DNA of 64,000 nt from Nemertoderma westbladi (Eukaryota > Animalia > Xenacoelomorpha). The stretch is from assembly GCA_032718475.1 (NCBI GenBank), contig JAUCBJ010006881.1, positions 59,795 to 123,794 on the forward strand, written 5' to 3'. The position numbers and the translations under genes are program-made. Position 1 is the first letter of the stretch; each line of letters opens with the position of its first letter. The notes beneath the pieces are model-generated. The model made no database searches. It had not been told where the DNA came from and was given only the letters and a program-made list of their open reading frames with translations. Shown in pieces: positions 3,703 through 63,688 of the stretch.

Positions 3703-3749
3703 GGGCAGTTTTCGTTCGGTCAGCAATAGGCCTAACGTTGCAAAATGCA

Positions 3750-4702
3750 GTATTATTGCCTAGTAACCAATTCATGGCTACCATATGGTTTTCACTTTGA
3801 GACATTTCGCCCTCTAGCGGCAGACTGGGAACTTCAGAATACTCTGTGACTCTGCAAAAGATATAGCCCATATTGTAATAGATACCGATTGGGGGGTCAA
3901 AATTAAGTAATAATATATCTAAATAAGCCTCAAACATCTTGCCTCATGGCTCGCCCCTTAGAACTCTTAAGCAATATAACTTCATAGTTTTGCGGATTGT
4001 AAATAACAAAGCTAGAGAAGATGTTAATTTTCAAATAATACGCCCTCTAGCGGCAGACAGGGGAACTTCAGACTACTCTATGTCTCCGCAAAAGATATGG
4101 CCTATGCCGTAGTAGATGCCTACCGAGTTTAAACCTATTCGGAATGAAAATAACAAAGTTAGAGAAGATGTTAATTTTCAGATAATATGCCCTCTAGCGG
4201 CAGACTATGGAACTGCAGACGGCTGGATATAGGTAAGAGTAATTAGTAATCAGAGGTGTCACGAGAGGGGGGCGGGGCGCTTGGATACAACTATTATTAA
4301 TAAGCTGTTGCTTGGTTAAAGCTAATTGGGGGTCAAAGGTCAACGATAAAGCTGTCTGGATATAGATAAGAGTAATTAGTTACCTAATTAATTTTAAAAT
4401 AGAAATCAATGTATAAAGTAAAGGTAATACAATTACTTAAATTAAAATAAAGTACAAATGAATAATTAATTTAAAATTAAATACAAATAAATAAAGTAAA
4501 ATTAAATACAAATAATTAAGTATTAATGAATAAAAGAGCCGCGGTGTCACTTATGACACCCTCTTGAGCCGGCTTTGCGACAGTTGGACCTCACTGATGA
4601 CCCATTGTGTGTCAGTGCGCTAATCAGTCTGATTAATTAGGATAATCAATTAAACCCTAATTAGGAGTCGTAAGACACCTAATAGGTACACCTGTCAATT
4701 AG
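3750..4702. repeat. Right inverted-repeat arm, truncated at ~4702 relative to the copy at 34476-35601
   Basis: Colinear with ~34476-35460; similarity stops after cctgtcaattag. Confidence 0.9.
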
Positions 4703-4996: not shown

Positions 4997-7059
4997 TAAG
5001 TGCGCCAAAACAATGTCAAAATTGTTTTTTAACATTTTCCAAAAGATAAAAAACTAATTTTTAAATTAAATGTGATGATTTGTTGGTTCAATAGGCAGGT
5101 AAGTTTTTGAAGTTTTATATGAAAAATTGAAACAACTTTAATGGGTGTGCTCAAAAGCTTGCAAAATTGTTAGTTATTGTGTTCATTTTGAAAAAAATAA
5201 ACAATCTTTTTAATTAAAAGTGACGATTAGGGGGCTTCGATAAAAAAAAACTCAAAGTGATTTACAAAGAAGTTTAATAAAATTATAACAAACAATATTT
5301 TTAATTAAATTGGGCGGCTTCGATAGTATGTACTTATGAAAATAACAAGACACTAAAAAGGCACTTCAGTTAGTAAAAAATTCAAATTTAGTGTAGTTGA
5401 TCTATATACTATAGTTAATAACCTCGCAATAGTCAACGTTCGATAGATTCCTTAGATTCGTTCGTTCGATAAAGTATACAGATATTTGGAATATAACGGT
5501 CCCCAGGGCAATTAGAGCCTGAGAGCTGTAGAGCCTACCGGTAGACAACATGCTTATATTTATTTAATTTAGGTTTAAATTTCCCGCTTTTGTGAATATT
5601 GATTATAAGGATGGCAAAATGATTGGTCGATCGCCAAAAGTTGTGTTTTTTGGGATAAATCACCAATTTCATTGAAAGTATACAAGAATATGAAGGGAGG
5701 AGAGCCGCAAAGAAGTCACTGTCCGATGGAATGAGTTCTAGTTAAACATATAAACTGTAGTTCAACAAATTATTCTTGGAGCGTCCAGTTAACTTTTTCT
5801 GTATTATGTTTGTAAACTTTGAAAATAGGAAGTAAATTACTAATTATTATCAAAGGAAATGAAGTGAACGTCGAAACAAAGTAACTGTCAAAGCCACCAC
5901 AATTAAATCACTTACAGTACTAGAAATAGGTTTAACATTATCTACTATTTTAGACTTAAACTGCACTTAGAAAACATAAGAATTGGCAGCCACATCAATT
6001 CGAGCCACAAATTAATCACATGTTTCAAACTGTTGTAACTTCGTAAATACCTCACATTCTTTAAGAAAAACATTTTTTTAAATAGTAGAAAATTATTCGA
6101 TTTAATCTACATAGATACACGACAGAAAGGCAGCCACAATTTAATTTGACCTCGCAAAACATAACACCATCCAAATCGATAGAAAAAGCCTAAACAGAAG
6201 ATGCAGTAGAGCACCGTTATTTTTTAATGCTTTTATGGAATTAGGGCATAATAATTACACTTAAACTTCAGCACTTAGTTTATTCAATTGAAAAGAAATG
6301 TTTAGCCAATCAGTGATACCGTAGAATGAAGAATTGTAGAAGACAATAGAATCGTACTGTACATGTACGACCGTATCTACGGTAGCCTATGGGGTTTATT
6401 CTGTTATACATGGAAAACTCAGGTACGTTACGCACGGATTTTGAAATTTGTTATGCACAGAACATTTTCAAACATAAAATTTTCAGCACCGCCCCACAAA
6501 TTAAAAAACGATTTCAGTATTATTTATCGTTGTTATCAAAACTGACTCTTGACCGTGTTGATAATCAGCAAAACATTACTGCCAAGCTAAAATTTAAACT
6601 TTTCGATAAAAATGTTATGCACGGAAGGCGACGGGGTTATGATAAATCGACCAGTACTTTCAGAAACGAACAAAACAAACCAAAAAATTCGAAATCAGTA
6701 CCATCGAAAACGTCGGGTTCCAAGAAAATTACGATTCGAAATGGACATTTTAAAGTATAGAATTCGCTTTTCTAAAATATTTTAAAATTGACTCAAATTG
6801 CAATTATTTTTTGTTAATCAGTCGGCGCTTGCAAATCTTTTCAATAATGCCCAGTACCGTTGGAAAAGTTCTTATTTCATATCATTCAATAGTCATTTTG
6901 TAACATTTTTTTTCTCGTAACAAAATCATATATAGATGTAGTGCCCAAGCAGCACCTTACATACAGTACGGCCCAAACTCACAAAAAGTTTCGCACACGT
7001 TTCAACTTAATTTTAGAATAATATTTTTTTTAGAACCTTAAGTAATAAAGTTATATATA

Positions 7060-7250
7060 GAAAAGAACAAGTAGTGCGATTTGAAAAAAAACATAATTGT
7101 TTAGATTCGGAACGTTTCGTATATACGAATACATTCAATATATAAATAAATAAAGAATAAAAATAATATAAGATATATAAATACGATATATATACGAAAC
7201 GTTCTGGATCTAAACAATTAGTTTTTCAAATCGCAATACTTGTTATTTTC
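7060..7250. repeat. Foldback inverted repeat (MITE-like)
   Basis: gaaaagaacaagtagtgcgatttgaaaaa...gaacgtttcgtatat is inverted at ~7188-7250. Confidence 0.7.
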
Positions 7251-9819: not shown

Positions 9820-10132
9820 GATGACATTCTAGACTAGAAGTAGAATACACTACCCTGTACTGCTGTACGTACAGCTGTACGTACAGCAGTACGTACACGT
9901 CGCTGTCTCTTCTGTTCTTTATTATTACTAAATCCAGAAATCCTAGAAACTTCAGAACTTTGTAGGCCTAATGCCAAATGCAGTACAGCAGTACATCACC
10001 CCCACTTCCATTTTATTGTACATACTAACTAACTGTAAATAACTATTTAGGTAGGGCTCTAAGTTTAATTTTATTATACTGTACATATAGATAGACAATT
10101 ACATTTACGTACATACTTTCATAATTACCGTG

Positions 10133-11414
10133 TGTAAAAGCTTCTGTGGGATATAACTGGCCCCTTTGCTTCGCAATCCAGTTTCCCCCCAGGCGCTGGA
10201 ATACTCTAAAAAGGTTCTCTAACTGTATAAATATTCCCCTCGCCCTCAAGGTACCGTTACAGGTGTTTTAACGGACATAAAAGTCATTCTGCTATATACG
10301 TGTTTTAGCGGACATGGTAAGACAAAAAACCTGCAATGCGACAAATACCTTTCATAGCTTAGCCGTGATGATTCATATTACGACATCTAACAGCTGGTTG
10401 CTGACATGGAAACAGCCATTGAACGCATGGTTCTTTGTTTGGCTTGAACCAATCAGAGCGATTTTTCCTGTCGATGTGTAGCTTTTCGGTCGATCATAGG
10501 GAGAGTGTTCAGTCTTACTGTTTTTTCTTGATACTTTGTTGTTATTGCTGTCTAGGCCAGGAACAACGGCTCTAGAGTCAATTCGTTTCATACTTTTATA
10601 AGAAACATTAGTAGGCTTAAATTATAGAGCGTATGACTGTTATGAATACACAGTCTATATCATAACACATCATATATCAATTTATATCAACTTGTTTCTA
10701 TTCTTGTATTATCGGTTCAATATACATTATTATACTGCTGTTTACTATTGTTTGGTGGAACATTATTTGGAGAACATATATAAAGAACCCAAATTTCCCA
10801 ATTTTCTTGATACACTACAGGTTAGAGAGACGGGTTATATATAGCGATTGCGACTTATATTGTTGTGGTTTGTAGTGAATTTAATGCTATTTAATAAGCA
10901 CTACATTGGTCCGTTGCTATTCCCTTTATATATGATAAAATTCATTGACGGTCGGCAAATTAGTGAGCAGTATTGTGTGTTACCGGTATTGTGCATGATT
11001 GTGATTGATAACTAAGCATTTCCTAAAGAATGCGCCTCATACGTGAATCTTAAGCCTTACCGACTTACCGTTGTGATTAGTATAAGTCATATCTCTGTTT
11101 ACTTAGATAGAGCGCCACGTCCTAAAGGAACTGTTAATATTTCCCGAAAGTAAATAATATTAGTCAGAAATTAATTATTAACGATCAATCGAATAATACA
11201 ATACAGTAAGCTTCACTGCAATAATAATTTAAGCCGACAGAATCCAGTCTCCCGGGATTATCCAGCGGGTGAATGGACGCGCACTAGGCTGGCTTCTGCT
11301 AATGTTGTGTTTATTGGTATAAAATATTTGTCTTCTTCTAAAGTATATTTATAAACCAAAAGACATATAAATTTTGGCAGGTTAAACTGCTAAAGGTCTT
11401 CAAAAGCGCGTACA
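10133..11414 (+). repeat. 5' LTR
   Basis: TGTAAAAGC...GCGCGTACA; same length as the 3' LTR. Only 2 substitutions noticed by eye (~10374, ~10475). Confidence 0.97.
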
Positions 11415-11425
11415 ATAACAGTCAT
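11415..11425 (+). promoter_or_regulatory. Primer-binding site position: ATAACAGTCAT, complementary to LTR 10633-10643 (putative self-priming PBS)
   Basis: No TGG/tRNA-3'-end complement follows the LTR; exact 11-nt reverse complement of ATGACTGTTAT in the LTR. Confidence 0.7.
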
Positions 11426-13572
11426 TGACTTTATTGCAGTAAGCAATAAAGTTGAAAGTACCGGTCAACCGGTAAACCTGAACCTGTACTTCTGTAGGTC
11501 TGTAGGCCCAACTGTACTAACCGGTACTTCCAGTATAAGTACATTAGTATTATTCGATTTTGATTATTGCATACCGGTAGGCTGTTCAAGAGATTAGGGA
11601 CTGTATACCCCTTGTTTCTTTTGGAGCTTACTTATTTCTGTCAGTTTTATTTACATGTAAGTTAATATTGAGCTGAAGACGTGTAAGTCTGCTCAGATTG
11701 TTCAGATAATTGTAGGCCGGACTGTTGTCAGATTGTTGTTGGGTTTGGAGAGATTACGGCGTGTGTGGAGTTTGTCCGATAGAGTGCCAGTTAGTAAGTT
11801 GGGGCAGCCATTGCTGTAAGGTCAATCCCCTCTTAAAGAATAAGTCGTACTACCGTGTTAGAACGTATACTAACTAACAATTTTGGAATCTGCACATACT
11901 GTAGTTTATTTAGGCTTGACAGTATTCTGCCAGCGTTTTGGCTTGTGTTTGTTTGTGTAGTCTGTTCAGGTACCGTAATCGTTATTACTCAGATATTTTG
12001 TAGGCTGGATTGTTGTCTAGCTATTATTAGGTCTGAAGAGATTGCTGCTTGTGTAGAGTTTGTCTGATAAAGTGCCAGTTAGTAAGTTGGGGCAGTCATA
12101 ACTGTAAGGTCAATCCCCTCTTAAAGAATAAGTCGTACTACCGTGTTAGAACGCATACTAACTAACCGTTTTGGAATCTGCACATACAGTAGTTTATTTA
12201 GGCTTGGTGGTAGTCTGCCAGCATTTGGTTTGTATTTTGTTTGAGTATTCTGTACGGGTAGCGTAATATTTATTATTCAGAGTTTATGCGATTATTCGCA
12301 ACATTCATGTCCCCAAGTTTATTCCTACAGTAATTGTGTTTGTTATACATACCGTTATAGTTAAATTAACCCCGGTACTACACGGGCTGCTTGGCGTAGG
12401 ACAAGACTGGTGATTTTGTGCACCGGTCACTCCAGCAGATGCCGTGGTTCTTTTAACTGTTCAAGTATATTTAACTACTGATTATTTGTTGTACCAGTAC
12501 TTGTACCTAATTTAGGGTTTAGTGTACAGTGCTTTCCGAAGTAATTAGTGTGTAGGCAGTATATTTGTGTTGTAAAGTGGTTAATAGGCACGCTGGATCT
12601 GGTAGTCCGCGGTAATTAACTTCTAGGTAGGAACACTCCGTGATACATAACGTAGTACCTATAGCGATACGGTTATAGGTCGTCAGGCGGTGGTATTTTC
12701 CTATCTGGACAGTGCAATATATTTACTACTACTTATTATTTTCAAATACCGTAGTACCCTGTCCGTTGTAATAACCAGAATTCTAACCCTTTGTTAGGCT
12801 GGTTTGTAGACTTCCTGTAAAATTACCCTAAAAATTTCGTACGTAATATTTTTGTTGTGTTTAATTAGAGATTTAATCTCACCCGTATCGTACGTAATTT
12901 GTAGTATTAAGTAACTTAGGTAAATTAGAATTATCTGTTTTAGTGTCCAATAAATAGCACTTCACTGAGAGCGCACAGCTTCTGTGTAGTGACCCCCAGA
13001 AATAATAACATTTATTTCAAATATTGACAAAACCCTTTTTAAACGGGTATATATATATCTATTATAAATCAACTCAAACGATTTATAAATAGTAGGCCTA
13101 CCATACAACAACTAGGTCTCAAAATCAGTTGGACTCCTGCTTAAATAACGGTAACAAAGTAAGTTAAAGTAACCAAGTAACCCTAAATATTCAGAAATTT
13201 AATTATTATAAAAATAATTGACATACCGGTATTTACCATAGGCTTATTATATTTATTCTATAAATTCGAGCTGAAATCATACCGGTATTCTGTAATAATT
13301 CTAGTTCATAATTATACTTATATATACTATAAGTGTAAGCTGTATACCGGTATTCACGATAGGCCTATTATATATTTATATATATTTGTGCTAAATTATA
13401 TACCGGTACTCTGTGACAAACCTAGTTTACAATACTTATATATGTTATAAGTGCATACCGGTATTCTAATATACGGCAATAAATTACCGGTACTAGGCCA
13501 ACGGTCATACTGAATTACTAGACTTGCTTTAACTGTAACTATAGCAGTAGGCATTCAACTGTATAGCTAAAC

Positions 13573-16500
13573 ATGTCTGACACTCAGCAAAACCTGTCAG
13601 ACAGTCTAATCGATACAACCATCTGTGACACAGATAGGAGTGTGGAGCGTTTAATTAAGAAAGGAGTTCAGCTCACCTCCTACTGAAAGAAAAGTCATCC
13701 CTCCAGTAGTGATATCGGACCCTAAGCTAATCCAACACCGTAGGTCCATCATCGGCACTCGGGCCCAAGTCAAACGGAACCAGGAAGCAGCTGTCCCACA
13801 GCAGCAACAGCCTAGTCAAGAAACTTGTTCCCAGCGATCAGATAGCTCCAGTAGTTCGGATACTGTCGAACTGACCCCCGAACGCGGATTGCAGATGACG
13901 ACTAAAGCCTACTCGGACCCCCTTCTCACCCTTCCTGCCGCAGTGCTAACAACTATATTGATTGCGGTGGAGGAACATCAAGCAGATTGGGCGAGAAATA
14001 AGCGAGCGACCCAAGATGATTATGCGGGATACGCCAGGGAAGAATTGATGTCTATTGTCGAGTCACAATGGAACTTTCCCGGACCCGGACTCCCGTTAGA
14101 TCTGTCCGAGGCTACTTGGGAAGATATACACAGGATGGGAGTGGCTAAAGATACGATGGATCCAGCTGTTTGGAAGAGGTCGGCAGCAGGATATGTGCAG
14201 GGATTCTTCGGCTCCTTAGAGAGATTAGAAGAACAACTGTTTCGACAACCCCAAGGACCTCAAGAGCAGGAAGAACTGCTATATCAAGTATGCGAAAGAA
14301 CCCTACGCATACGACTAATCCTATCGGCTTTTGAGGAAACTTCCAAAAGAAGACAGGACACGTCGCTGCAGGTTGCTGTCAAAACTTGGTTCCAGCGGGT
14401 AGGTCTCCAAGTGCAAGAAACAGACCAGTGGAAATCCCAGCTGTCTGAGAGACTAACTCATGAAGAACCAACTGATGCCACCCTTTCTCAAGTGGAAGGC
14501 GAAGAAACCTCAGAGAAACCACGAACGAGAGACGCCATCGACATTTATCTGTCCGACTATCAGCGATTCCTAGGAGACGAAGAGTTGAGGAGACGGCTGT
14601 CTGGACTTTCCCCCAATAGTGAAGGAACCCAGCGTGTGTTAGATTCAATCGATGCTGAAATGTTAGCTGCTAACCAAGCTGAGTTTGATGAGAAACTCCG
14701 ACTCACTAGAGTCCAAGAAGAACTAGTAAAGAAAAAACGGATAGAGGACCGAAAGGCAGCTGCAGTAACAGCGGCAATGGCCGAAGTGGAAGCAGAAAGA
14801 AAGGCAGCTGCAGTAACAGCGGCGGCAGAAGCAGCAGCAGAAAGAAAGGCAGCGGCGGCAGAAGCCGAAGCAGAAAGAAAAGCGACTGTGGCAGCAGCAA
14901 AGGCAGTGGCAGAAGCAGAACGGAGAGCCTCTGAGGAGACTGCCCAACTGGAGTTGGAAAATCTGCAAGAGACGCAAGACAACATAAATAAACAGTTAAC
15001 TGCTAGTCACATGCAGATGATGAGAAAATCTACTCCCAAACGCCAGGGATATACGTCATCGGAGGAAAGCGAAACCACCTATCCTGAAGGCGGAGGAAAT
15101 AGATCTCATCTAAGTAGGCGTAGAAAAACAACTTACCGTCACAAATTGCCTGATTTGCCCCCAGCTGTTAGAAGACAACTAGCTAGCACAGACTTAAGTA
15201 GTATAGAACCTACAGACCAAATTATCAAGGTCAAAAGACTCCCTACTATAGTTGATGAGCCTGAAATAATTAGGCCTGTCGTTCCCAAAGTCACTCCTGT
15301 GTTAGAGACCCCTGTACTTCCAGAGCATAACTCTAAATTCCCTTTACACAGTACTACACTGCCTGTGCCCGGTAGAACAGTCCAGGAGAATATCCCTGTC
15401 CTGGAAGCTGAGAGAGAAATCAAAGATTTGTCTCCCGTCATCCCACGTCAGCCCGCTACAATGTTGGCGACTCCCGCTTCGGCGGTCGAGTGGGTAGAGG
15501 AGGGACGGCGGGGGATGAATCTCCTGCTCGGACAGATGCAGGAGACTGTCCGCCAGCTTAAGGGAACAGTAAGAGAAAGTAGGGCCGAATTGCAAGAAGT
15601 GCAGCAAAGTATCGCGCTAGAACGCGACAAATTAGTCAACATACAAAAGGGCATACCAATACCCCCTGTAACATTGTGTCAACCTGTTAGGTCTGAAGTA
15701 TTACATGCGCAAGGTGTGGAGCCTACACGCATCTATACTGCTAGTGAAGTAGAAACTCCTATAGCAAACCCTATTAAGAGTGATTATAGACCTGTTATTA
15801 ATGATATTCCCTATAGACCTGATACTGATCCGAGAAATTTATATACCGATAATTCGATATTAAATAACACGATGGCCCAAGAAAGCTTTACGCGGCAGAT
15901 GGCTAGAACAGAAGCCCGCCAAGCGGTCAAAGTGGGAGAGATCGTCAAATTCAATGGAGATGAGATGAAATGGTTACCTTTCAACGAATATTACAAAGAC
16001 AGCATACAGAACTCTGTACTATCTAACGGAGAGAAACTTAGGTTCCTCATCAAGTGCTTGGAAGGACCTCCCAAGTTAATGGCGTTAAAGTCCAGAAGAC
16101 ATCCAGAAGGATTAAGACAAGTATGGGATACATTAAACATCAGGTATGGTAACAAGGATAACATAGCTAAGTATTTGTATGCAAAATTAGTAGCCCCCCG
16201 ACACTTCCTTAGTAGCGGGATTATAGAGTTTTCCGATGAAATTCAGGAGATCTGTAGACAATTGGACTGGTTAGGTAAGTCTCATGAATATCAGAGTTCA
16301 ATGGTTATTGGAGCCATAGTCTCTACTTTACCAAAGGGTGGAGTATGTACACGCTGGGACAAGAAAGTGTTGTACATGAATGAACAACAACGACGAAGTC
16401 CTACCATGGCTGATCTCATGTCCTTCTTGGATGGTGAGGTAAAACTACAACTCATCAAGCAGTCCAGAGAGAAAACATCGGAAAATAAGGTATGTGAGAA

Positions 16501-17461
16501 ACCCGCTTCTAGGAGAAGAATAACACCGGTGTGTTACACTGACGACGGCGAAAGCCAAGTTTCTCAAGAAGAGGACAGCGGGAAAAACACTGAGCGATCT
16601 TACTACGTTGACAAAACCTCAAAAGATGTAAGTAAATACAAGGCTCGAAACAACGATAGGAGAGAACAGGTTGCCAGGACCCCCCCTCAGTCTCCTAACA
16701 GAATGCACCGAAGAAAACCCGAAGAAAAAACGAGAGTGCATCAGGTTACCCAAGGTAAAGTGAGTAACATAAAACCTAACTGTGCGCTGTGCGACGGGAC
16801 CCACCGTTTGAGTGCGTGTGCTGAATTTCTAAAGAAATCCCTTGTAGACAGACGTGCAGTTGTGTGGGACAAGCGGTTATGCTATAATTGCCTCAGACCA
16901 GGACACCAACGGCGAACCTGTTACTCCGACATAAAGTGTGCAAAGTGTGGCGCGAAACATCACATCTTGTTACACAGTGAGTTCGAACGAGACAAACAGA
17001 GTCAGGTAAGTGAGCCCGAACTACATGTCCAATTCAGTGATGTAAACGACACTGATCAGGAGTCTGAGATGGAAGGATTCTATACTGACGAATTCTCCGA
17101 CGCCAACGAATCCTGTTATCTAATCAATACCGCAGTGTATCGAGCACTTACTTATGAAAAGGTCACCAACGATGAGTTTCCCCCAACTACTTTTGCCAAA
17201 CAACCATCTTGGAAAGCTCCAACTTCCAACGTAGGAATCAGAGAATTTCCTGTGGTGCAGGTAAGAGTTCATGGTCTTAATAAAAGTTACATAGTGAACG
17301 CCCTCCTTGACTCTGGCAGCACAGGAACATTCATCGATCAAGAATTAGCCGAAGATATCTTTGCTGGACAACCCAAATTCCGGACTAAATTGAATATGTC
17401 AGGAATTATGCAGGTTTGGAAATCTACCTTAACGGCAGATTACTATGTAGGTGTAAGTTAG
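13573..17461 (+). CDS. gag: BEL/Pao gag + aspartic protease (likely true start ATG 13573; +4 frameshift at 13651-13658; open from 13709)
   Basis: Capsid-like region; CALCDGTHRLSAC / CYNCLRPGHQRRTC / CAKCGAKHHILLH knuckles; LLDSGS protease motif. The N-terminus MSDT.QNLSDSL is contiguous with the rest in the second copy. Confidence 0.9.
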
Positions 17462-17503
17462 GAATAGGATAAGTTAGGAACACAAGGTATAAGGTCGGTA
17501 AAA

Positions 17504-20500
17504 ATGGTGGCTATAAAGAACTTCGCTACTACTCAAGCAGACCTTTATAATTGGGACGAGGATGAGAGCATCCAACATCTTGAGATACCTCGATTCCAGA
17601 CAGATTATCCTGGAGTGCAAATCCTCATCGGCCAGAACGCGCATGAGGCGCTCGAAACATTGGAGAAACGGCCTGCTCAACCACAGCCACTGCAAACCTA
17701 TGCGGTAAGAACTAGAGTAGGTTGGTACTTTACTGGCCCTTCCCACAGGACTCTCGAAGAGAGAATGCCACAAGAACACACATACCAAGTACACGATTGG
17801 GAAGTGGAGAGCAGTGAGGTGGACGAACTAACTGAGGGAACACCATACTCCTCAGATAATGACGACATCTACCAACTCTTCGATGAAGAGAACACAATCG
17901 ACCTACTTACAGAAAACCAAACTTGGAAAAGTCAGGTGAACCTTTGTCAACTGATTCACCCATCGGAACAAAACGCTTACAATGACGAACTAAACGATGA
18001 GATAGAGCGCTACAACGCTAGAACTCGGGACGAACTAGCTGTACGATTCTTTACTCAGGAACTGGTAGAGCCCAATTCATATGATAAGGCTCTATCGATA
18101 GAAGAAGAAAGAGCCAAGCAAATCCAGGAAACAACTACACGTTTTTTAAAGGACCAAGGTAGGTATGAAATCGGCCTACCATTTGGAAAACGAGAACCTA
18201 GATTTATAAATAACAGACCCTTGGCAGAGAAAAGAATCGCTCAATTATATCGACGCCTTACAGCTAATGCTTCAGCGAAAGAAATGTACCAAACTCAGCT
18301 GAAGAAATTTATAACAAAGGGATACGCGGAGCGAGTACCGGAAGGAACACCAGTGACTGAGAGAATGTATTACTTAACACATCATTACGTTCCCAAACCC
18401 GGTAAACCCCATGAAGTCCGAGTCGTATTCGATGGCTCTGCGCTATATATGGGCCAATCCCTCAATTCCGAGTTGTTACCAGGACCCAACTTACTCCAAT
18501 CTTTGTTGGGAATACTATTAAGATTAAGACAATATTCCATCGCGTTCGCCTCTGATATAGAAGGAATGTTCTTACAAGTCAAGGCGCTGGATAGAGATAG
18601 AGACAGCCTGAGATTTCTGTGGTGGCCTGAAGGAGACCTCAACCAGAAACCGGTAGAGTACTGGATGACCATCCAGGCTTTTGGGATCATATCAAGCCCT
18701 TCCAACGCCTGCTCCGTGGTGCGAACCACTGCTAATGATAACCGGGACTCCTTCTCCAAAGAAGTGATAGACAACATAAAACGCAATATATACATGGACG
18801 ACAATTTAAGGTCCCTTCCATCAGTAGAAGAAGCCATAGCTGTCGCGAAAGGAACGGTAGAGTGTTTGAAAAGAGGTGGATTTCGACTGACGAAATTCAC
18901 TAGCAACTCCCGTGAGTTTCTGGAAGCCATACCGGTAGAAGACCGCGGAGCGAAAGATCTAGACTTGATAAAGGACGATCTTCCTGAAACCAAGACGCTT
19001 GGCTTGAAGTGGGACACTGAAAGAGACATCCTGTTTTTTCAGTTAAAACAGCGAGATAATCCAGTTCGGACCAAACGGATTTGTTTAAGTATCCTGAGCA
19101 CTTATTTCGACCCATTGGGATTTATTAGCCCAGTTATATTGATTGCTCGGAGTTTAGTACAACAGATGTGGCTTGAAAACCACTCATGGGACGATCCGCT
19201 TAAGGGAGAATTGTTGAAGAAATGGATGAAATGGGAAGATTCTCTACCTGCCATCGAGAACTTTATAATTTCCCGTGCATATTTTGGCCATGTTCTTCCT
19301 ACGTATTCCTATCAACTCCATGTGTTTGGAGACGCCAGCGACATGGGAATAGGTATAGTAGCATATCTTCGAGTCGAAACTCCGGATGGAATCAAGGTCG
19401 CCTTGGTTACCTCTAAGGCATTGATTAACAACAAGTTAAAGGTTCCTCGAGCGGAGTTAAAGGCGGCTTTATACGCTACAGCCATCGGCCGGAACGTAAC
19501 GGAACAAATCGACTATACACTGGAGAAAACGGTTTATTGGACCGACGCTTTACTCGTGTTGGAGTATCTCACCAATGAAGTCTGTCAGTTTAGCGTTTTT
19601 GTTACTAACCGAGTAGCTATTATTCTTAGTCGCACAAAGATAGATCAATGGAGACATTGCCCTGGTACGATTAATCCAGCCGATATCGCCTCCAGGGGAG
19701 CAACTCCACAGGAACTGATAGATACTCCAGATTGGTTGGGTGGACCCGACTTCCTGAGCAAGGAAGAGGATGAATGGCCTCCTCACCTTACTACGGCAGA
19801 GATTAGACAAGCCAAGGGAGCGGAGACAGTCAAACCTAAAACCCGGGCGAGTAAATCGAAGTTATTTAAACCGACTATCGATCTATCCGTATTACACACT
19901 TCCGGGAATGATGTTTCGGATCCACAATCCCTCAACACAAATAAGTCTGTTGTGGAAATTAGAGATAGAGATTGGAAATCTGGAATACCAGACGTCTCGC
20001 AAGGAATCTCACCCATGCTGCAGAGAGCAATGCATCATTACAGTTCCTGGAATCGGCTCTGTAAAGCCGTCACATATTTAAGACGATGTTTTCATCATCA
20101 CTACTCCAGGACGAAGACCATTAGTGATCACGCTCCATTGACATCTGCACAAGTTCATGTTATTAAGAATTTACCCAAATATAAGATATCTGATCGTTTT
20201 CTAAAAGAGAAAATTAGTCACCAGGAGTATGAAGAAACAAATAAACAGATACTGAGACTCCTGCAATGCTATGAGGATTCCGAAAAGTACTTCCTGTTGT
20301 TGAGAAATCCACAGATGCGCTTAAGGGATCGATTCTCGAGCACAATGATAGATGGGTTAATACGTGTTGGAGGAAGACTCACCAACGCCCCCTTATCCTT
20401 TGACACCAAATTCCCCATACTTATTAGAAATCTTGAAGTACAAATCAAGATGATTGTAGACGTTCACAGTAAACTTTACCATGCTGGTAGAGAACGAATT

Positions 20501-21676
20501 CTTAGCGAAATTCGAACTCGCTATTATTTTGATAAACCCCGTAGAGCTCTGAACCAAGTTCTTAGGAACTGCATACCCTGTAGGAAAGCATTCAGTAGGC
20601 CTTTAACACAGCGAGAGGCAGAATTACCTAGGGAACGAGTAAGCTTCTATGAACCACCTTTTACTAATACTGGTGTAGATTTATTTGGCCCTATTGAAGT
20701 ATATCGTGCGAGGACTATAGTCAAGAGATGGTGTGTCATCTTCGTGTGCATGACCTGGAGAGCCATCCATCTCGATATGGTGAACGATCTATCTACTAAC
20801 AGCTTCGTCTTAAGTTTACGACGACAGATCGCTCGCTTCGGGACGAGTAATACCATGAGATCGGATAAAGGAACGAACTTCATAGGTGCCAACAACGAGA
20901 TACAGGCTTACGTGAAGGACTGGAACCAAAGACAGGTGGACGACCAGCTAAGGATAACAGCGTCTAGCTGGACCTTCAACGCTGCCGACGCCCCTTGGTG
21001 GGGAGGAAGTTGGGAGAGATTAATTCGAAGTGTCAAAACCGCATTTCACTTTATAGTGCCATGCCGCGCGTATCTCACCGACGAACTTTTGCGGACGTTA
21101 ATGGAGGAAATCGCTGCCTATCTCAACGAGAGACCGCTTATGCCAGTCTCATCGAGTCCCGATTCCCTGGAAGCGCTAACACCCGCGCACTTCCTACTGA
21201 AGAAACCCGTAGCCATGCTCCCACGATCGGAGATTGCCGACGGAGACGAATACTGCCGTCGAACTTGGCAACTTATGCAGTTGCTATCCCGTCGTTTCGC
21301 TGACCATTTCGAGAAACATTATCTGCCCACGCTACAACTTCGAACTAAGTGGTTTGCGCAGCAAGAAAACGTCAGCGCCGGAGATATGGTGCTTATTGTA
21401 GATCCAGACCTCCCACGTAAACGGTGGCAGACAGGTCGTATCATCGAGACACACATTTCAGATGATGGTTTAGTACGCTCAGTAGAACTCATCGTCATGC
21501 GGCGTAACTTCAAGAAACCAGGCATCATCTTTGAGACGCAACAACTCAATCGCCCAGTTGGTCGTTTATGTTTACTGGAAAGAGACAGGGAACTCTCTGG
21601 AAACTATGGAAGGCAAGACACTCTTCCCACGACCACCTCCCTAATTCCTCAAACATCTAGGGACTCCCTAACGTGA
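17504..21676 (+). CDS. pol: BEL/Pao pol (RT, RNase H, integrase)
   Basis: RT (SDIEGMF, YMDD), RNase H (HVFGDAS, WTDA), integrase HHCC plus GVDLFG / SDKGTNF / WERLIR. Same frame as gag, separated by TAG-GAA-TAG. Confidence 0.95.
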   Translation: MVAIKNFATTQADLYNWDEDESIQHLEIPRFQTDYPGVQILIGQNAHEALETLEKRPAQPQPLQTYAVRTRVGWYFTGPSHRTLEERMPQEHTYQVHDWEVESSEVDELTEGTPYSSDNDDIYQLFDEENTIDLLTENQTWKSQVNLCQLIHPSEQNAYNDELNDEIERYNARTRDELAVRFFTQELVEPNSYDKALSIEEERAKQIQETTTRFLKDQGRYEIGLPFGKREPRFINNRPLAEKRIAQLYRRLTANASAKEMYQTQLKKFITKGYAERVPEGTPVTERMYYLTHHYVPKPGKPHEVRVVFDGSALYMGQSLNSELLPGPNLLQSLLGILLRLRQYSIAFASDIEGMFLQVKALDRDRDSLRFLWWPEGDLNQKPVEYWMTIQAFGIISSPSNACSVVRTTANDNRDSFSKEVIDNIKRNIYMDDNLRSLPSVEEAIAVAKGTVECLKRGGFRLTKFTSNSREFLEAIPVEDRGAKDLDLIKDDLPETKTLGLKWDTERDILFFQLKQRDNPVRTKRICLSILSTYFDPLGFISPVILIARSLVQQMWLENHSWDDPLKGELLKKWMKWEDSLPAIENFIISRAYFGHVLPTYSYQLHVFGDASDMGIGIVAYLRVETPDGIKVALVTSKALINNKLKVPRAELKAALYATAIGRNVTEQIDYTLEKTVYWTDALLVLEYLTNEVCQFSVFVTNRVAIILSRTKIDQWRHCPGTINPADIASRGATPQELIDTPDWLGGPDFLSKEEDEWPPHLTTAEIRQAKGAETVKPKTRASKSKLFKPTIDLSVLHTSGNDVSDPQSLNTNKSVVEIRDRDWKSGIPDVSQGISPMLQRAMHHYSSWNRLCKAVTYLRRCFHHHYSRTKTISDHAPLTSAQVHVIKNLPKYKISDRFLKEKISHQEYEETNKQILRLLQCYEDSEKYFLLLRNPQMRLRDRFSSTMIDGLIRVGGRLTNAPLSFDTKFPILIRNLEVQIKMIVDVHSKLYHAGRERILSEIRTRYYFDKPRRALNQVLRNCIPCRKAFSRPLTQREAELPRERVSFYEPPFTNTGVDLFGPIEVYRARTIVKRWCVIFVCMTWRAIHLDMVNDLSTNSFVLSLRRQIARFGTSNTMRSDKGTNFIGANNEIQAYVKDWNQRQVDDQLRITASSWTFNAADAPWWGGSWERLIRSVKTAFHFIVPCRAYLTDELLRTLMEEIAAYLNERPLMPVSSSPDSLEALTPAHFLLKKPVAMLPRSEIADGDEYCRRTWQLMQLLSRRFADHFEKHYLPTLQLRTKWFAQQENVSAGDMVLIVDPDLPRKRWQTGRIIETHISDDGLVRSVELIVMRRNFKKPGIIFETQQLNRPVGRLCLLERDRELSGNYGRQDTLPTTTSLIPQTSRDSLT

Positions 21677-23103
21677 TACGTCTGGAGTGGGTGTATGACT
21701 ATATTGTTTCATCTATTTTATTATATTTTTATATGCGAACTTTATTATGTACTTTATTATAATCGTTTTTATTCAATTTTATTTAGTAGAATGTTATTTT
21801 AGTATTATTTAGTAGATTAGTGCAATATATTAGTGTTTATTACGTACGTAATTACTTATAATATATATTTAGTGCGACGGCGAGAAATAATTTTTTCTCT
21901 TTCCTTACTGTACGTATCATATTATAAATACGTGACTACAGTAAGATGAAATGTCCGTACTTCTTAAAGTACAATAAAGCCACTACTATATTCAAGTATT
22001 ATTGGTAGGCAGAGTATTAGGAATGCAAAGTTCAGATCCTCGTGTCTCGGCTAAGCCAAGCTCTGGGTAGACCTTGGAAACGACTTGCCTCTTCACACTG
22101 ACATTGCTTCGTGCGATATTGCTCTTCTACCTTATATATAATAATACATATAGTAGCGTGATGTCCCTATAACAGTAGCGTAAAACGCAAATAAATCTGT
22201 TAACCTTTTGACCATCTGTAATTCTAGTCGATTAAGATATCGCGGCACCCACCGATATACTTGAAAGACAAATTCTAGAATCAGTGGTTAACGTCCCCAG
22301 ACAAGTTCTGGAATAAATCGGTGCCCATCTTAAATATTAATTTAATATTTATTAAAATCTGTAAAATTCAGATCCTTTAAAATTTCTAGTCAATTAAGAT
22401 ATCGCAGCACTTACCGATACTCTTAAAAGACAATTTTATAGAATTAAAGATCCTATGTCCCCAGACCTGCTCTGGAATCAAATTGTGTCAATTTTAACAT
22501 CAAATAATAAAATTCACGGGAATAAATTTAAATTCATATTTTAAATGAATTTCATAAATTGTCATTTTGTACAATTTATAACATTCCCAAAATTCCATTA
22601 ATTAATAGATCATGGGAGCGGAGATTCATCCTATTGAGTGTATTAGAGTGCGAGAATCTCCAACATATAGTCAATAGCCGATAAAATTAACAAAATCATG
22701 CATAAAGAGGATATTGACAATTAAAGAATTATTATTAAATAGCATCCCAGATCTGTATGCATGAGAATTACCCTAATTCTACCGCTAGCATTCCATAATG
22801 TCACCATAGCAACACCCACGCTAGAATTAGAAGCAAGTTAAAAGAACAATAGAAAGCTTGTCCCATTGCATAGCATAGAGAACATAGCACACTGTTAGTA
22901 TCCAAGGATACACAGTAATAAAGTGACATTCTGGAAGGCACTGACTAACGGACAAATGGCCTGTGTGTGTGCAGTTGTTGACAGTTGTGTGGAATTTGTG
23001 CGTTTATAGGTGAATGTTACTGCTAAAGTATGTTTACAGTAGCTAGTCGCAATTGTAAAAATAGCCCAACTCTCCTATAGAAAGAACCTAAGTGGATCCA
23101 AGC

Positions 23104-23254
23104 CTTTGGGACGGACAGTGGAGTGACTTGTGCCGGTTATCGTTGTCGTGCTGTTGCTACATGTTGGCGTAAACACCGCGACGACGGTACATCGGCGCTG
23201 AGAATCCCACTGTCCGGGGGCAAAGAAAAGTAGGCAGCGACGCCCGCTCGCCTA
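23104..23254 (+). other. Long imperfect RNA hairpin plus small hairpin upstream of ORF3
   Basis: cggacagtgg/ccactgtccg, gtgccgg/tcggcgc and tatcgttgtcgtg/cgcgacgacggta pair with many G-U pairs; then taggcagcg/cgctcgccta. Confidence 0.6.
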
Positions 23255-23295
23255 AATACAAACTTATTTGATATTAATAAACTCAGATAGCAGAT

Positions 23296-26200
23296 ATGAC
23301 GGAGTTAATAGAAGATGATCTTGGTATTAGGGAGCGATATACTCTACCTTTGCAAGCATTTGTGGATAGCTTAATACGCGGTGAAGCCGATCCAACCATT
23401 ACGGAGGACGATGGTCGTTATATCGAACCGCCGATGTCCCAAGAGCAACTTGCGCGTGAATTGGACTATCGAAAATTCACCACTCGCTATACGAATCGTA
23501 ATGGTACGTATATGGACTTCCTAACGACCGGCCATCCTATCGACTTACATGATACGGACGATGTAGATACAGAAAGGGAAATGGTTCTATTTAAATATCA
23601 TACCCAGCAGAGTCGTAACGATAAACCGAGAATAGATCACGAAAATTCTATTCGTAATAGACTAGAAAGAGAAAACATTGAAGAACCGGATAAACGCATC
23701 GACTTCAACGAATACTTAGAGTTTTTGAGAGAAACCTATCTCAACGTCGCTAGTCAGCAGAACTTAGAGACTCGATATCCTCAAGGTATCCATCACGACC
23801 CTGTAGTCGAACTCAAACGGCTCTATTTCACTATGATGTATCTTACCGCCGATCGTCCACTACCTGTTATCCCGGATAGTTTTGAACAAATGGAAGAATA
23901 CTGCAAAACTGGAGAACGAACACCCGCGTTTCCTCTACAGGACGTACGTCTTTGGTATTATTGTGACGAATGTCCTAGACCTAACCAACAAACTGAAAGA
24001 CATAAACATCCGCAGAGACGTTGCGCTAAACATAGTTTTACGCGTTACACTTACGGGAGTTTCGAGCGAAACCTGTTCGACATACCACCCACGATCGCTC
24101 GTCTTAAACGATCACTGAATAAACCCATGATCAGAGTTCCGGAATACTCGGTCAGGCCTCCTCATTCCCTAGTGAGACCTCAAACTCTTGATCCTAACAG
24201 TATCACTGATCCTCCCGAACTATATTCCCTGTTCAAAGACTTAGTGTTACCCGAACAACTAATCGGTGGTGCTCCGGTAGTGGGTTCGTTAGACATCCGC
24301 CCATCCTACTTAGCCGGATTGGGACGCGGGCAGCTAATATCGCCCTTTGATCCTTACAATCGTCCAGGATTAAACCCAATACAACCCGCCACGGAAGTCG
24401 AGGAGAGTGTTATAAGAAACGCTTTAGACGCCATTCGACAGAAAATCGGAAAGGGAACACAATATTGTTTAGAGAAACGTAAATTACAACAACAAGTCCA
24501 ATCGGTGAAGGAGTTAGCCTTGCCACAATTCGATAGAGAAATCCAAAACCTCGAGGAAGACATCGAGCTTGGACGCACGTATTCTCTACAAGAATTTTTA
24601 GATGAACGCTTACAGAGACAAGCAGAAGAAAATCTAATCGAAGAGAAACACACGAAACTGGAAGAAAGAGAAGAAGCCGCTTTAGCCCAACCTGAAGCTC
24701 AAATCCTCATGACGGACCTCTACTCTAAAACCGTTCGTCATCCCTCTATGATTCCACATTTCGGAGACAAGCTCTTCGCGACGATACAACCTCAACCGGT
24801 TGATATCAGTACAGGATCGCAAAACCTTATCGCTGACGCCCCTATGTTACAGCGTCCGCCGATCGAGGCCGCTCGTGTTGACGGTATACTCGTTGAACCT
24901 CCGGACAATCGAGCGGATCTTGTCCGTCGTATGGTACACGATGTCAACATACGCGCTAGACCTTTACAGAACTCGTTTTACGGGATTAAAGACCACCCTT
25001 ATTACGTTAATCTGACTCAATATTATATGGTAAAACCAGAAGACCCGACACATGATTTAAAGTTTCTACCACTAATAAATCCTCTAGACATTGTCGAACT
25101 CGAACAATTGCAGAAACATCTGGATCAGTTTGTAAAGGTAAACTCATTTAGAAAACCATATAACATTTCTCGAATCGAGAAAGATATAGAACCTCCTTAT
25201 AACCTCGATGGATTTATTAAAACTCGATTAGTCCATTGGAATCTAGATGTATTATTTGAAGAAGAGAAAATACAAAGATTTGGAAATGTGGAGACGTATA
25301 CCACTCGGCATATGAAGTATAGTGACCTCCCTGACGCTAACCAATGCGCCACCTTGTGGCATCCAGTAGGGATGACCCTAGAGAACGCCACCAAGGAGTG
25401 GAATGAAACTCTTAATGTTATTGAGATGTATGGAGTTGTCACCTACGATAATGAAGGTAGCGTTCCGGTCGGAGAGCTAGGAACTACGCGCATGATCCAC
25501 ATCCGCGGATTAGCTGGTTCTACCCACGTGTTTACTCGAGCGTGTTCCGACTTGATTGATTATTCTTTTGAAACTCTCACCGAAACACAAAAGAATCTCC
25601 GACATGGACAATTCGAACTCGCGCAGCGTTACGTCATTGACACCGAACGCAAACCGGCCATGGGCATCGATGGATCGATGTTACCCCAGCCCGTACTCGA
25701 GATGTTGTTCAACGAAAGAATCCTTAAAATCGGCTCAGCTGTTTATGGAGATCTCCAAAACGACTTTCGAAATATGGAGGACATTCCATACCCTTTCGTT
25801 GATACTCAGCTGATTGCTCCCTGGGCAGAAGGTCGAGGTTTCTTCCGCACCATGTATGCTAATACGTCTAGCAACATTACCAAGGTGCAACGAACTTCCA
25901 TCGGACATCTTGCCTTTCAGGAATACGGATGGAATTTCAAAGTCGGAAATCCCATTAACTATCAACAGGTATACGGAGACCATTATTCTCGATTATACTT
26001 TGATGGACCATTGACCGCACCTGGCGCCGTGTATAGCTTCATGAGTGTTCCGCTCCGTCCCTCCTTAGCTATATACACGATCTTTGAAAACACCGCACTT
26101 GCCGGTTGGCTAGCCGATGTGTGCAGTCGTACTATACGCGCCCATCCATTAATACTTGGGACCAAACTCGCGAAACTAGATGAACATAATAAATTCATCC

Positions 26201-27549
26201 GTTTCGAATGTTTCCGGAGATTTTTAACCCCGTTTCGCAACGTGGATAGCCAATTTAAAGACTGCGCTTTGACCAAACTCAGCCTAAGAAACTCAGCTGC
26301 AGAGAAGTTGGATAGCGCTGGATTCGCCATTTTCCAAGAGATTTGTATATCGAACTTGCACTCCTCAGTTATACAAAGACCTCGAATCCCCACAGGTTAT
26401 TCTGTCGTGGAAATTCAGACGATAGGTCCACCTGAAGAGACAGACACGCCCACTTCAGCTATGCACTTGGAAGACGAACCAATATGTCTAGAATCTGAAG
26501 AGATTCAGCCTATCGCGCCCCGGACCAGCGACAACGATTACATCATAGAATGGTATCAAGGCCCACAGTGTCTCACTGCGTACGATTATCGACATGCCAA
26601 CTATGTTTCTAGGCAACATTGTCGGTTATGCGCATCGAGAGACCACGATACGCCCCTGGACACCAACGTCCGCTGTTCCTATTTCCGACTACAACCGACT
26701 ATGGAAATTTATTGCGCATATTGCAGACTCAATAACTTACATATCTTTGCAGTTTGCCCTCAATTTATGACTCAATGTCACCATTGTCAACTAAAGGGAC
26801 ATGCTAGTTTCGACTGCCCTTTTAATCACGATTTGGAAAGCGTAGATGAAATGATCACACTGCGTTACATCAGAGCTTGGGAAGCGAACGCTGATTTACA
26901 TTGTGATTCGCGCCATCGCTATTATCCCGGACGCGCTTACGAAGGAGTTTATGCGTTCCATCCTTATCTATTCGCTTCGGTTGAACAGAAATCACGCATA
27001 TCAAGTTACGAGCTACTGAAGCGCGTCGGAGAATGTATTTCAACCAAATTCGTACGCAAATTTCTCAGGAGTGTTAATCCTAGCGACCTTCATTCCTATA
27101 ACTTAATCAATTATATCCGTCAGGATCCGGACTATGGAGACTTGTTTGTTAACTCACATCCCGAGTTGCAGGAAGTACATCGAAGGCCTTACGAATACCG
27201 AGCCCGCGAACGCGAGTTGGAAAGGACCATTAAACCCCGGAAGTTTCTAACTGCCTATGGTCCACCCACGGCCCTCGTTCAGACCACTCGTAAAGGACCC
27301 GTAAGAGCGGCTGTCTTGAAACGAGCTCTCAAAGCCGTTAGACCCCTCTCACCTGACGTTGATGTCAATCAACCCGGTACTTCGACTGGCGGATACACCG
27401 ACCATAATCCTACACCCTCTGATGCAATCATATTGCACCCTTCACCCAGGAGTTATAGCCCTCCTTGTAAAGTGGCTCGCCCCAAAGAGAAAAGGACTCT
27501 TGCTAGCTTTAAAAAACTGCGTAAACGCCGTCCGCGCAAGAAAGACTAA
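23296..27549 (+). CDS. Retrotransposon accessory ORF3: DEDDy-like 3'-5' exonuclease fold + Zn knuckles + coiled coil + basic C-terminal NLS
   Basis: Intact 1417 aa inside the LTRs. Motifs VVTYDNEG (ExoI-like), LPQPVLEMLFNERILKIGSAVYGD (ExoII-like), FVDTQLIA, SIGHLA, IYTIFE (degenerate ExoIII); CRLC/CAYC/CHHCQLKGHASFDC; KKLRKRRPRKK. Confidence 0.8.
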   Translation: MTELIEDDLGIRERYTLPLQAFVDSLIRGEADPTITEDDGRYIEPPMSQEQLARELDYRKFTTRYTNRNGTYMDFLTTGHPIDLHDTDDVDTEREMVLFKYHTQQSRNDKPRIDHENSIRNRLERENIEEPDKRIDFNEYLEFLRETYLNVASQQNLETRYPQGIHHDPVVELKRLYFTMMYLTADRPLPVIPDSFEQMEEYCKTGERTPAFPLQDVRLWYYCDECPRPNQQTERHKHPQRRCAKHSFTRYTYGSFERNLFDIPPTIARLKRSLNKPMIRVPEYSVRPPHSLVRPQTLDPNSITDPPELYSLFKDLVLPEQLIGGAPVVGSLDIRPSYLAGLGRGQLISPFDPYNRPGLNPIQPATEVEESVIRNALDAIRQKIGKGTQYCLEKRKLQQQVQSVKELALPQFDREIQNLEEDIELGRTYSLQEFLDERLQRQAEENLIEEKHTKLEEREEAALAQPEAQILMTDLYSKTVRHPSMIPHFGDKLFATIQPQPVDISTGSQNLIADAPMLQRPPIEAARVDGILVEPPDNRADLVRRMVHDVNIRARPLQNSFYGIKDHPYYVNLTQYYMVKPEDPTHDLKFLPLINPLDIVELEQLQKHLDQFVKVNSFRKPYNISRIEKDIEPPYNLDGFIKTRLVHWNLDVLFEEEKIQRFGNVETYTTRHMKYSDLPDANQCATLWHPVGMTLENATKEWNETLNVIEMYGVVTYDNEGSVPVGELGTTRMIHIRGLAGSTHVFTRACSDLIDYSFETLTETQKNLRHGQFELAQRYVIDTERKPAMGIDGSMLPQPVLEMLFNERILKIGSAVYGDLQNDFRNMEDIPYPFVDTQLIAPWAEGRGFFRTMYANTSSNITKVQRTSIGHLAFQEYGWNFKVGNPINYQQVYGDHYSRLYFDGPLTAPGAVYSFMSVPLRPSLAIYTIFENTALAGWLADVCSRTIRAHPLILGTKLAKLDEHNKFIRFECFRRFLTPFRNVDSQFKDCALTKLSLRNSAAEKLDSAGFAIFQEICISNLHSSVIQRPRIPTGYSVVEIQTIGPPEETDTPTSAMHLEDEPICLESEEIQPIAPRTSDNDYIIEWYQGPQCLTAYDYRHANYVSRQHCRLCASRDHDTPLDTNVRCSYFRLQPTMEIYCAYCRLNNLHIFAVCPQFMTQCHHCQLKGHASFDCPFNHDLESVDEMITLRYIRAWEANADLHCDSRHRYYPGRAYEGVYAFHPYLFASVEQKSRISSYELLKRVGECISTKFVRKFLRSVNPSDLHSYNLINYIRQDPDYGDLFVNSHPELQEVHRRPYEYRARERELERTIKPRKFLTAYGPPTALVQTTRKGPVRAAVLKRALKAVRPLSPDVDVNQPGTSTGGYTDHNPTPSDAIILHPSPRSYSPPCKVARPKEKRTLASFKKLRKRRPRKKD

Positions 27550-27619
27550 CTGTTTAGAGTATTTACGTATATTAGAAACTGTGATTTTGTATATTTTATA
27601 GACTCAAATCCCATTTTCT

Positions 27620-27627
27620 GGGAGCGG
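27620..27627 (+). promoter_or_regulatory. Short purine-rich tract (GGGAGCGG, PPT) abutting the 3' LTR
   Basis: Lies directly before the TG of the 3' LTR. Confidence 0.6.
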
Positions 27628-28909
27628 TGTAAAAGCTTCTGTGGGATATAACTGGCCCCTTTGCTTCGCAATCCAGTTTCCCCCCAGGCGCTGGAATACT
27701 CTAAAAAGGTTCTCTAACTGTATAAATATTCCCCTCGCCCTCAAGGTACCGTTACAGGTGTTTTAACGGACATAAAAGTCATTCTGCTATATACGTGTTT
27801 TAGCGGACATGGTAAGACAAAAAACCTGCAATGCGACAAATACCTTTCATAGCTTAGCCGTGATGATTAATATTACGACATCTAACAGCTGGTTGCTGAC
27901 ATGGAAACAGCCATTGAACGCATGGTTCTTTGTTTGGCTTGAACCAATCAGAGCGATTTTTCCTGTCGACGTGTAGCTTTTCGGTCGATCATAGGGAGAG
28001 TGTTCAGTCTTACTGTTTTTTCTTGATACTTTGTTGTTATTGCTGTCTAGGCCAGGAACAACGGCTCTAGAGTCAATTCGTTTCATACTTTTATAAGAAA
28101 CATTAGTAGGCTTAAATTATAGAGCGTATGACTGTTATGAATACACAGTCTATATCATAACACATCATATATCAATTTATATCAACTTGTTTCTATTCTT
28201 GTATTATCGGTTCAATATACATTATTATACTGCTGTTTACTATTGTTTGGTGGAACATTATTTGGAGAACATATATAAAGAACCCAAATTTCCCAATTTT
28301 CTTGATACACTACAGGTTAGAGAGACGGGTTATATATAGCGATTGCGACTTATATTGTTGTGGTTTGTAGTGAATTTAATGCTATTTAATAAGCACTACA
28401 TTGGTCCGTTGCTATTCCCTTTATATATGATAAAATTCATTGACGGTCGGCAAATTAGTGAGCAGTATTGTGTGTTACCGGTATTGTGCATGATTGTGAT
28501 TGATAACTAAGCATTTCCTAAAGAATGCGCCTCATACGTGAATCTTAAGCCTTACCGACTTACCGTTGTGATTAGTATAAGTCATATCTCTGTTTACTTA
28601 GATAGAGCGCCACGTCCTAAAGGAACTGTTAATATTTCCCGAAAGTAAATAATATTAGTCAGAAATTAATTATTAACGATCAATCGAATAATACAATACA
28701 GTAAGCTTCACTGCAATAATAATTTAAGCCGACAGAATCCAGTCTCCCGGGATTATCCAGCGGGTGAATGGACGCGCACTAGGCTGGCTTCTGCTAATGT
28801 TGTGTTTATTGGTATAAAATATTTGTCTTCTTCTAAAGTATATTTATAAACCAAAAGACATATAAATTTTGGCAGGTTAAACTGCTAAAGGTCTTCAAAA
28901 GCGCGTACA
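27628..28909 (+). repeat. 3' LTR
   Basis: Near-identical to 10133-11414; followed by the CCGTG TSD. Confidence 0.97.
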
Positions 28910-29289
28910 CCGTGTTCTATTATTGATAAAGTTTAAGTTTATATATTTTATTCAATAAAACTCATAGTTAAATTAACACATGAGGCAGTCTATGTTTATA
29001 TTTGTAAAAATATATTTAGGCAAAATATTATCTTTGGGCAGATAATAATGGGATACTAGCTTTTTGTCTCAATTCTGTACCTGTTGTGTTCGTTATTTTT
29101 TGTCAAATATTAAGCGAAATGCATAATTTTGTACCTTTTCAAGTTTATACAGTATGTCCTTGTAACTAATTTTTGTTATTCATTTATAGTCTATAAATAA
29201 CAGCAATAAATTTTGATTGGCTAACGGGTATTGTACTGTAGCTCCAGTTAACATTTAATTCAAATTTCACATTTAATTCTAATGAAGAT

Positions 29290-57677: not shown

Positions 57678-57759
57678 CTTTAATATGGACTGGAAATTAA
57701 GCTATAAATGACAAAATGAGAATAACTTTTGTTGGGCACAGCTTTGCAAAGTCGAGAGA

Positions 57760-63354: not shown

Positions 63355-63688
63355 GTTTTCGAGTTATAGCACCATTTTTTAACCCTACTTTTGGCACTTT
63401 TTTTGAGACGTTTTTTGAAAATTACATTTCATTAAATATGAATTGTAACATCTTTTTTTTGGTATTAGCATCATATTTTAATATGATGCTAATACATATA
63501 CATAATTCATATATCATATTTTGGTGTTAGCAATTGGATGGAATTCATATAAATTGATTTAGAAATTTCAAACTTGTTTTTTTCCGCGGGTGCCAAATTT
63601 TGGTGCCACCACCAAATTTTGTAATATGTCAATTTTGTAAATTGATTGTTTGAAACTTGTTTTTACGCAATTGGGGATTTTTCGGGTT

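Follow-up and report, generated by a model that had tools for sequence, protein, structure and literature searches.

The stretch of DNA analysed here (64 kb; hereafter the window) contains a BEL/Pao retrotransposon of about 18.8 kb which, instead of a tRNA-type primer-binding site (PBS), carries directly behind its 5′ LTR 11 nt that are exactly complementary to a segment of the LTR itself. The best reading of this arrangement, and in our judgement a probable one, is self-priming in a BEL/Pao lineage by a mechanism resembling that of Tf1. This reading is based on sequence comparison, namely on covariation of both partners between two copies of the family and on the recurrence of such matches in 13 of 16 scored relatives, as opposed to 4 of 302 swapped control pairs. 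Of the tRNA-independent self-priming proposed in the first-pass annotation, the sequence side is thus well supported, and the priming step is what we infer from it.

Overall architecture of the element

The element spans positions 10133–28909 of the forward strand (18,777 bp) and is organized as follows:

10128–10132 (+): left target-site duplication CCGTG; right copy at 28910–28914
10133–11414 (+): 5′ LTR of 1282 bp, TG...CA, with 2 positions that differ from the 3′ LTR
10597–10601 (+): TATAA, 36 nt upstream of the LTR 11-mer; absent in copy 2
10633–10643 (+): candidate 11-nt self-primer, with which the transcript is predicted to begin (folding is a prediction)
11361–11399 (+): predicted hairpin at the U5 end, common to both copies, without double-sided changes; holds an acceptor-like AG at 11380–11381
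11415–11425 (+): candidate PBS, abutting the terminal CA; no TGG
11429–11451 (+): leader hairpin of 9 bp just 3′ of the PBS; in copy 2 the stem is kept and the loop changed
13655–17461 (+): ORF1, measured from stop to stop; gag-like part with DUF1759 and zinc knuckles, plus start of the protease region
17468–21676 (+): ORF2, reverse transcriptase (RT; YMDD), RNase H (Peptidase_A17), integrase (H2C2, DUF5641)
23281–27549 (+): ORF3, 1422 aa, without Pfam match
27620–27627 (+): purine-rich tract abutting the 3′ LTR
27628–28909 (+): 3′ LTR

The start of the 5′ LTR at 10133 was set by the duplication CCGTG, and its end was fixed independently of the PBS, as the point where the 5′/3′ LTR pair diverges. 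Since the LTRs differ at only two positions and the CCGTG duplication is found on both flanks, the insertion appears to be young.

Its proteins place the element with BEL/Pao: DUF1759 in Gag and Peptidase_A17, Integrase_H2C2 and DUF5641 in Pol all score above the Pfam cut-off, and Peptidase_A17 (PF05380) comes first in 119 of 120 homologues among the matches listed. Gag and Pol domains in the order PR-RT-RH-IN, TG...CA LTRs, a target-site duplication and a polypurine tract are all present, in agreement with the superfamily named in the first-pass annotation. ORF2 further contains the acidic motifs of RT and RNase H. A Pfam search of the element gave no match to a chromodomain, and its Pol is not of the Ty3/gypsy chromovirus type that defines the Tf1/sushi group. 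The nearest proteins are only 37–42% identical; where a source is named, it is an echinoderm, a cnidarian, a mussel or a fish.

Two in-frame TAG codons, at 17459–17461 (the end of ORF1) and 17465–17467, break gag-pol in the protease region, so that the window copy may not be autonomous. The pair is directly preceded by a perfect GTAAGT donor-like site (17453–17467, +); damage, read-through and splicing are all possible. Long non-coding stretches are found in the 2.2-kb leader (11415–13654), which holds a 288-nt tandem duplication (11710–12285), and in the 1.6-kb spacer ahead of ORF3 (21677–23280).

ORF3 occupies the env position and yields no Pfam match at E≤5. Its middle part resembles 3′–5′ exonucleases in language-model features (0.91; PF01612 on 50% of the cluster; 157 shared features). 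Homology searches returned a single relative of ORF3, P0121 (E 5e-7), in which an exonuclease-like part is likewise followed by Cys/His clusters; the Pfam match of P0121 stays below cut-off (E 0.2), and further homologues of P0121 or longer ones of ORF3 were not detected. PDB support was confined to the zinc knuckles, and the AlphaFold models were unusable (pLDDT 34 and 31). An exonuclease-like domain accompanied by Cys/His clusters is therefore a possible assignment, to be taken as a lead only.

Elsewhere in the window, an open frame of 379 aa at 56562–57701 (−) contains a caspase domain (Peptidase_C14, E 1.6e-38). Long inverted repeats of 98% identity (1–792 and 3747–4527) surround tandem arrays and, with a third copy at 34294–35417, probably belong to a DNA transposon. 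At 62559–63994, a 1133-bp direct repeat extends over a frame of 271 aa, which matches DUF6451 weakly.

Complementarity between the PBS and the LTR

Positions 11415–11425, directly 3′ of the terminal CA (11413–11414), read ATAACAGTCAT. The reverse complement of this segment, ATGACTGTTAT, is found within the LTR at 10633–10643. The exact complementarity reported in the first-pass annotation was reproduced letter by letter and at the same coordinates, including the end of pairing at 11 nt on both sides. The reported lack of a tRNA-type site behind the 5′ LTR was likewise found, with no TGG within the first 9 nt. Where the ICTV description calls for an 18-nt PBS that pairs with the 3′ end of a tRNA, the window element has the 11-nt self-match. 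It thereby shows the arrangement of Tf1-type elements, in which a PBS next to the LTR pairs with some 11 nt of that LTR. ARAGORN detected 0 tRNA genes in the 64-kb window, and the one Rfam match was at chance level. The paired sequences are AT-rich and nearly palindromic; when 40,789 11-mers were taken from unrelated DNA of the window, 39 had their reverse complement in the LTR (0.00096).

Covariation in a second copy

A truncated relative of the element (copy 2), 73–86% identical, is located on the minus strand:

~36261–39660 (−): LTR, leader and first ~220 nt of ORF1; 5′ edge approximate
38464–38474 (−): extra copy of the PBS within a local duplication
38533–38543 (−): PBS, with the matched change
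39273–39283 (−): LTR 11-mer, with one change

Copy 2 has no pol and, within the window, no 3′ LTR. Its LTR 11-mer and PBS occupy the same alignment columns as those of copy 1 and each differ by one change, the two changes matching one another, which bears out the covariation noted in the first-pass annotation. When the PBS of one copy is crossed with the LTR of the other, only 8 nt pair. A rough drift estimate from the two-copy alignment, with both family copies compared in phase, gives 0.012 for perfect pairing to be kept and 0.0014 for a matched single change. In contigs of four sequencing runs the family is polymorphic; none of the 40 differences listed, out of 193, falls into either 11-mer, and the runs are uninformative on covariation and on the start site.

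Predicted folding and start of the transcript

The TATAA 36 nt upstream of the 11-mer in copy 1 is missing from copy 2, both as described in the first-pass annotation. Upstream of the 11-mer the two copies agree at 25 of 30 nt, downstream at 17 of 30. For the relative L026, a TATATAA begins 31 nt before the first paired base.

When the RNA of copy 1 is folded from 10633, the helix between 11-mer and PBS closes across 771 nt with a mean pair probability of 0.88. This value decreases to 0.49 if the RNA starts 6 nt further upstream and to 0 at −20, so in the folding model the helix is predicted to form if the RNA begins at, or within a few bases of, position 10633. For the transcription start at 10633 proposed in the first-pass annotation, this folding and the higher conservation upstream of the 11-mer provide indirect support. 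The corresponding helix of copy 2 is not robust: it is present with 11 nt of leader and absent with 60, moves to the second copy of the PBS with 120 (0.9) and is almost gone with 200 (0.12). The loop between primer and site, 771 nt in copy 1 and 729 nt in copy 2, compares with 45–219 nt in 13 relatives, the loop of copy 1 being 3.5 times the longest of these. Since neither LTR contains AATAAA or ATTAAA downstream of the 11-mer, R is undefined. The long loop, the fragile helix of copy 2, the TATAA at −36 in copy 1 only and the missing poly(A) signal weigh against the self-priming reading. An AATAAA is located in the leader at 11445–11450 (+), within the conserved hairpin that follows the PBS.

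Self-matches in related elements

A search with an RT alignment yielded 99 loci, which represent animal DNA in bacterial bins and metagenomes. Viral contigs gave no loci with this query, and neither viral nor metagenome contigs gave any with a single-protein query. Twenty of the loci (L001–L020) are animal BEL/Pao loci in GTDB bacterial bins, where they reflect contamination by host DNA or, in the case of L015, a Wolbachia record that includes insect DNA.

Scoring covered the 16 of 99 loci with a located LTR end, whose RT is 30–44% identical. Contiguous matches and matches across a GT-AG junction were accepted at offsets of 0–5 from the LTR end; the range had been enlarged from 0–3 after L005 and L092 were spotted by eye, and the control was recomputed identically. 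For L012, L022, L026, L067 and L095 the 3′ LTR was used, and the LTR end of L084 rests on a contig end. L036, L054, L059 and L061, which duplicate families already represented, were omitted, as was L063, in which a duplicated piece of pol makes up the repeat; apart from a second-tier set described below, the remaining loci have no usable LTR.

A perfect self-match of 10–15 nt is present in 13 of the 16 relatives (at least 11 nt in 12, exactly 11 in 7). In the control, which swaps LTRs and PBSs between elements, 10 nt were reached in 4 of 302 pairs and 11 nt in 1 of 302. All matches are perfect Watson-Crick with letters that differ from family to family, and in all 15 matches the offset from the LTR end is 0–4. 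Two of the 16 relatives have tRNA-type TGG sites, and their self-match scores are 3 and 4. L001 is a near miss, with a strict score of 8 and, by eye, 10 of 11 bases across a junction. Twelve further loci, in which the LTR end was not fixed, were scanned as a second tier without a control and left out of the counts; they gave four spliced matches of 11–12 nt with GTAAGT donors, four loci with contiguous matches of 10–13 nt that could not be attributed, and four with nothing.

Splice-built matches and descent

In 10 of the 13 matching relatives the match arises only after removal of a GT-AG intron from the LTR, and in 9 of these 10 the donor agrees with GTRAGT at 5–6 of 6 positions. The other three are contiguous, like the window element, whose match in DNA corresponds to the intron-free form without a canonical GT-AG intron. 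In the sister families L004 (1000–1790) and L008 (1000–1880), the three exon-1 bases before the shared GTGAGT donor change together with the PBS. The two are kin, and the LTR of L008 also scores 11 with the PBS of L004, via a poor donor.

L067 combines both forms. In its 5′ LTR the 11-mer contains an acceptor, and its 88%-identical 3′ LTR is contiguous there (145–326; 6694–7103). The donor lies beyond the start of the contig, and the two LTRs probably stem from different copies. Such a contrast is what would be expected after the loss of an intron.

In trees of 52 and 20 rows, calculated without the named superfamily references (Sinbad, Suzu, Tas, Pao, BEL, Dan, Flow), the three contiguous relatives are placed separately among the spliced ones. 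The window RT, with best identities of 42–44%, forms a long branch (1.82) beside spliced-type L026 and tRNA-type L095, in an order that the trees do not settle. Due to this placement, the evidence from the relatives does not transfer to the window element by proven descent.

Proposed mechanism and alternative explanations

In the proposed mechanism, bases 10633–10643 would likely constitute the capped 5′ end of the RNA and fold back onto the PBS. Cleavage of the duplex behind base 11, for which the RNase H of the element itself is the probable enzyme, would create a new 3′ end that could prime minus-strand DNA exactly at the end of the LTR without a tRNA, as in Tf1. Plus-strand synthesis may further copy the primer into a new PBS, which would account for the perfect Watson-Crick pairing and for the preponderance of 11-nt matches. 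For most relatives, assembly of the primer would require that an intron be spliced from the LTR, and the intron-free form of the window element could have arisen through intron loss. A wider scenario, towards which the balance tips with some reserve, is that self-priming is widespread within the aquatic BEL/Pao radiation, mostly via a spliceosome-stitched primer composed of a first exon of few bases and the start of a second exon within the LTR, and that families switch between tRNA-primed, spliced and intron-free states. The window element would then represent a deep intron-free branch, in which the primer bridges some 770 nt of folded RNA and a giant element carries an extra exonuclease-like gene.

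The pairing could alternatively be a structural helix between R and the leader, acting in packaging, in translation or as an end-joining switch, with priming left to a host tRNA fragment, a small RNA or the like. The flanking hairpins indicate that the region is structured, the ARAGORN search extended over the 64-kb window only and not over the host tRNA set, and half-tRNA priming is known in some Ty1/copia lineages, as stated in the available part of PMC6317226. However, the helix is placed precisely where a primer has to bind, with offsets of 0–4 in all 15 matches, the letters change from family to family while the pairing stays perfect Watson-Crick, and the relatives with a TGG site lack the self-match; moreover, no alternative primer site is evident. 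We regard this explanation as unlikely. Pure coincidence, inherited by two copies, might be invoked since the sequences are AT-rich and nearly palindromic and only two family copies were compared in phase, but a chance match has a frequency of about 0.001 per site and one of about 0.012 of outlasting the divergence, and 13 of 16 relatives with a match as opposed to 4 of 302 controls render it extremely improbable.

A different question is whether the primer of the window element is spliced as well. If an intron at 10639–11381 were removed, the junction would restore all but one of the 11 bases and the loop would shorten to about 30 nt; such a junction is possible in both copies (10 nt, offset 1), would abolish the unusually long loop and would fit the majority pattern of the relatives. 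Yet the donor agrees with GTRAGT at no more than 3 of 6 positions, compared with 5–6 for 9 of the 10 spliced relatives. The pyrimidine tract of the acceptor is weak, the acceptor itself falls inside the predicted hairpin common to both copies, and the resulting match is shorter than the unspliced one. In addition, each copy holds a second, equally good acceptor, from which it follows that 4-nt matches are common. Given the poor donor, the acceptor within a predicted hairpin and the longer contiguous match, splicing of the window primer is considered improbable, and self-priming from the contiguous 11-mer is the preferred reading.

Comparison with known systems

Tf1 of S. pombe, cited as precedent in the first-pass annotation, does prime with its first 11 bases, RNase H cutting between bases 11 and 12 (PMC7175516, available part). 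According to the accessible portions of PMC7175516, PMC4600332 and PMC5341516, Tf1/Tf2, Tj1 of S. japonicus and the Tf1/sushi and Tcn1 groups of Ty3/gypsy resemble the window element in having no tRNA site and a PBS complementary to a segment of the LTR; the length of 11 nt is shared with Tf1. Unlike these, the window element has BEL/Pao proteins (Peptidase_A17, DUF1759, DUF5641), no chromodomain match and a loop of 771 nt, and most of its relatives need splicing to form the match. Moreover, priming of Tf1 has been demonstrated experimentally, whereas the window element is known from its sequence alone. Outside Tf1/sushi, self-priming has also been predicted from sequence for the TAR lineage of plant Ty1/copia elements (Houba, Osr-1), which belongs to another superfamily and kingdom and for which the available part of PMC6317226 mentions no splice-built primer.

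BEL/Pao elements are described as tRNA-primed, as the first-pass annotation had stated: the ICTV account of Belpaoviridae gives replication as tRNA-primed and poorly understood (PMC8742986). The window element shares with this family the Gag-PR-RT-RH-IN order, TG...CA LTRs, the polypurine tract and the position of a third gene, but lacks a tRNA site in place of the 18-nt PBS for tRNA-Arg or tRNA-Gly. With 18,777 bp and an LTR of 1282 bp it falls outside the ranges of 4.2–10 kb and 0.2–1.2 kb, and its ORF3 has no env-type Pfam match where the third gene of Belpaoviridae is env-like (PMC8742986). A full-text literature search, the scope of which ended short of supplements, Repbase, GyDB and subscription journals, returned neither BEL/Pao self-priming nor a splice-built primer, and the terms PBS, tRNA and priming do not occur in the available main text of PMC3118150 or PMC554778.

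If the proposed mechanism holds true, pipelines that demand a tRNA PBS are predicted to miss such elements. A splice-built primer in the relatives would tie replication to host splicing. Self-priming would then be present in all three main superfamilies of LTR retrotransposons, which bears on whether it is ancestral or has arisen repeatedly.
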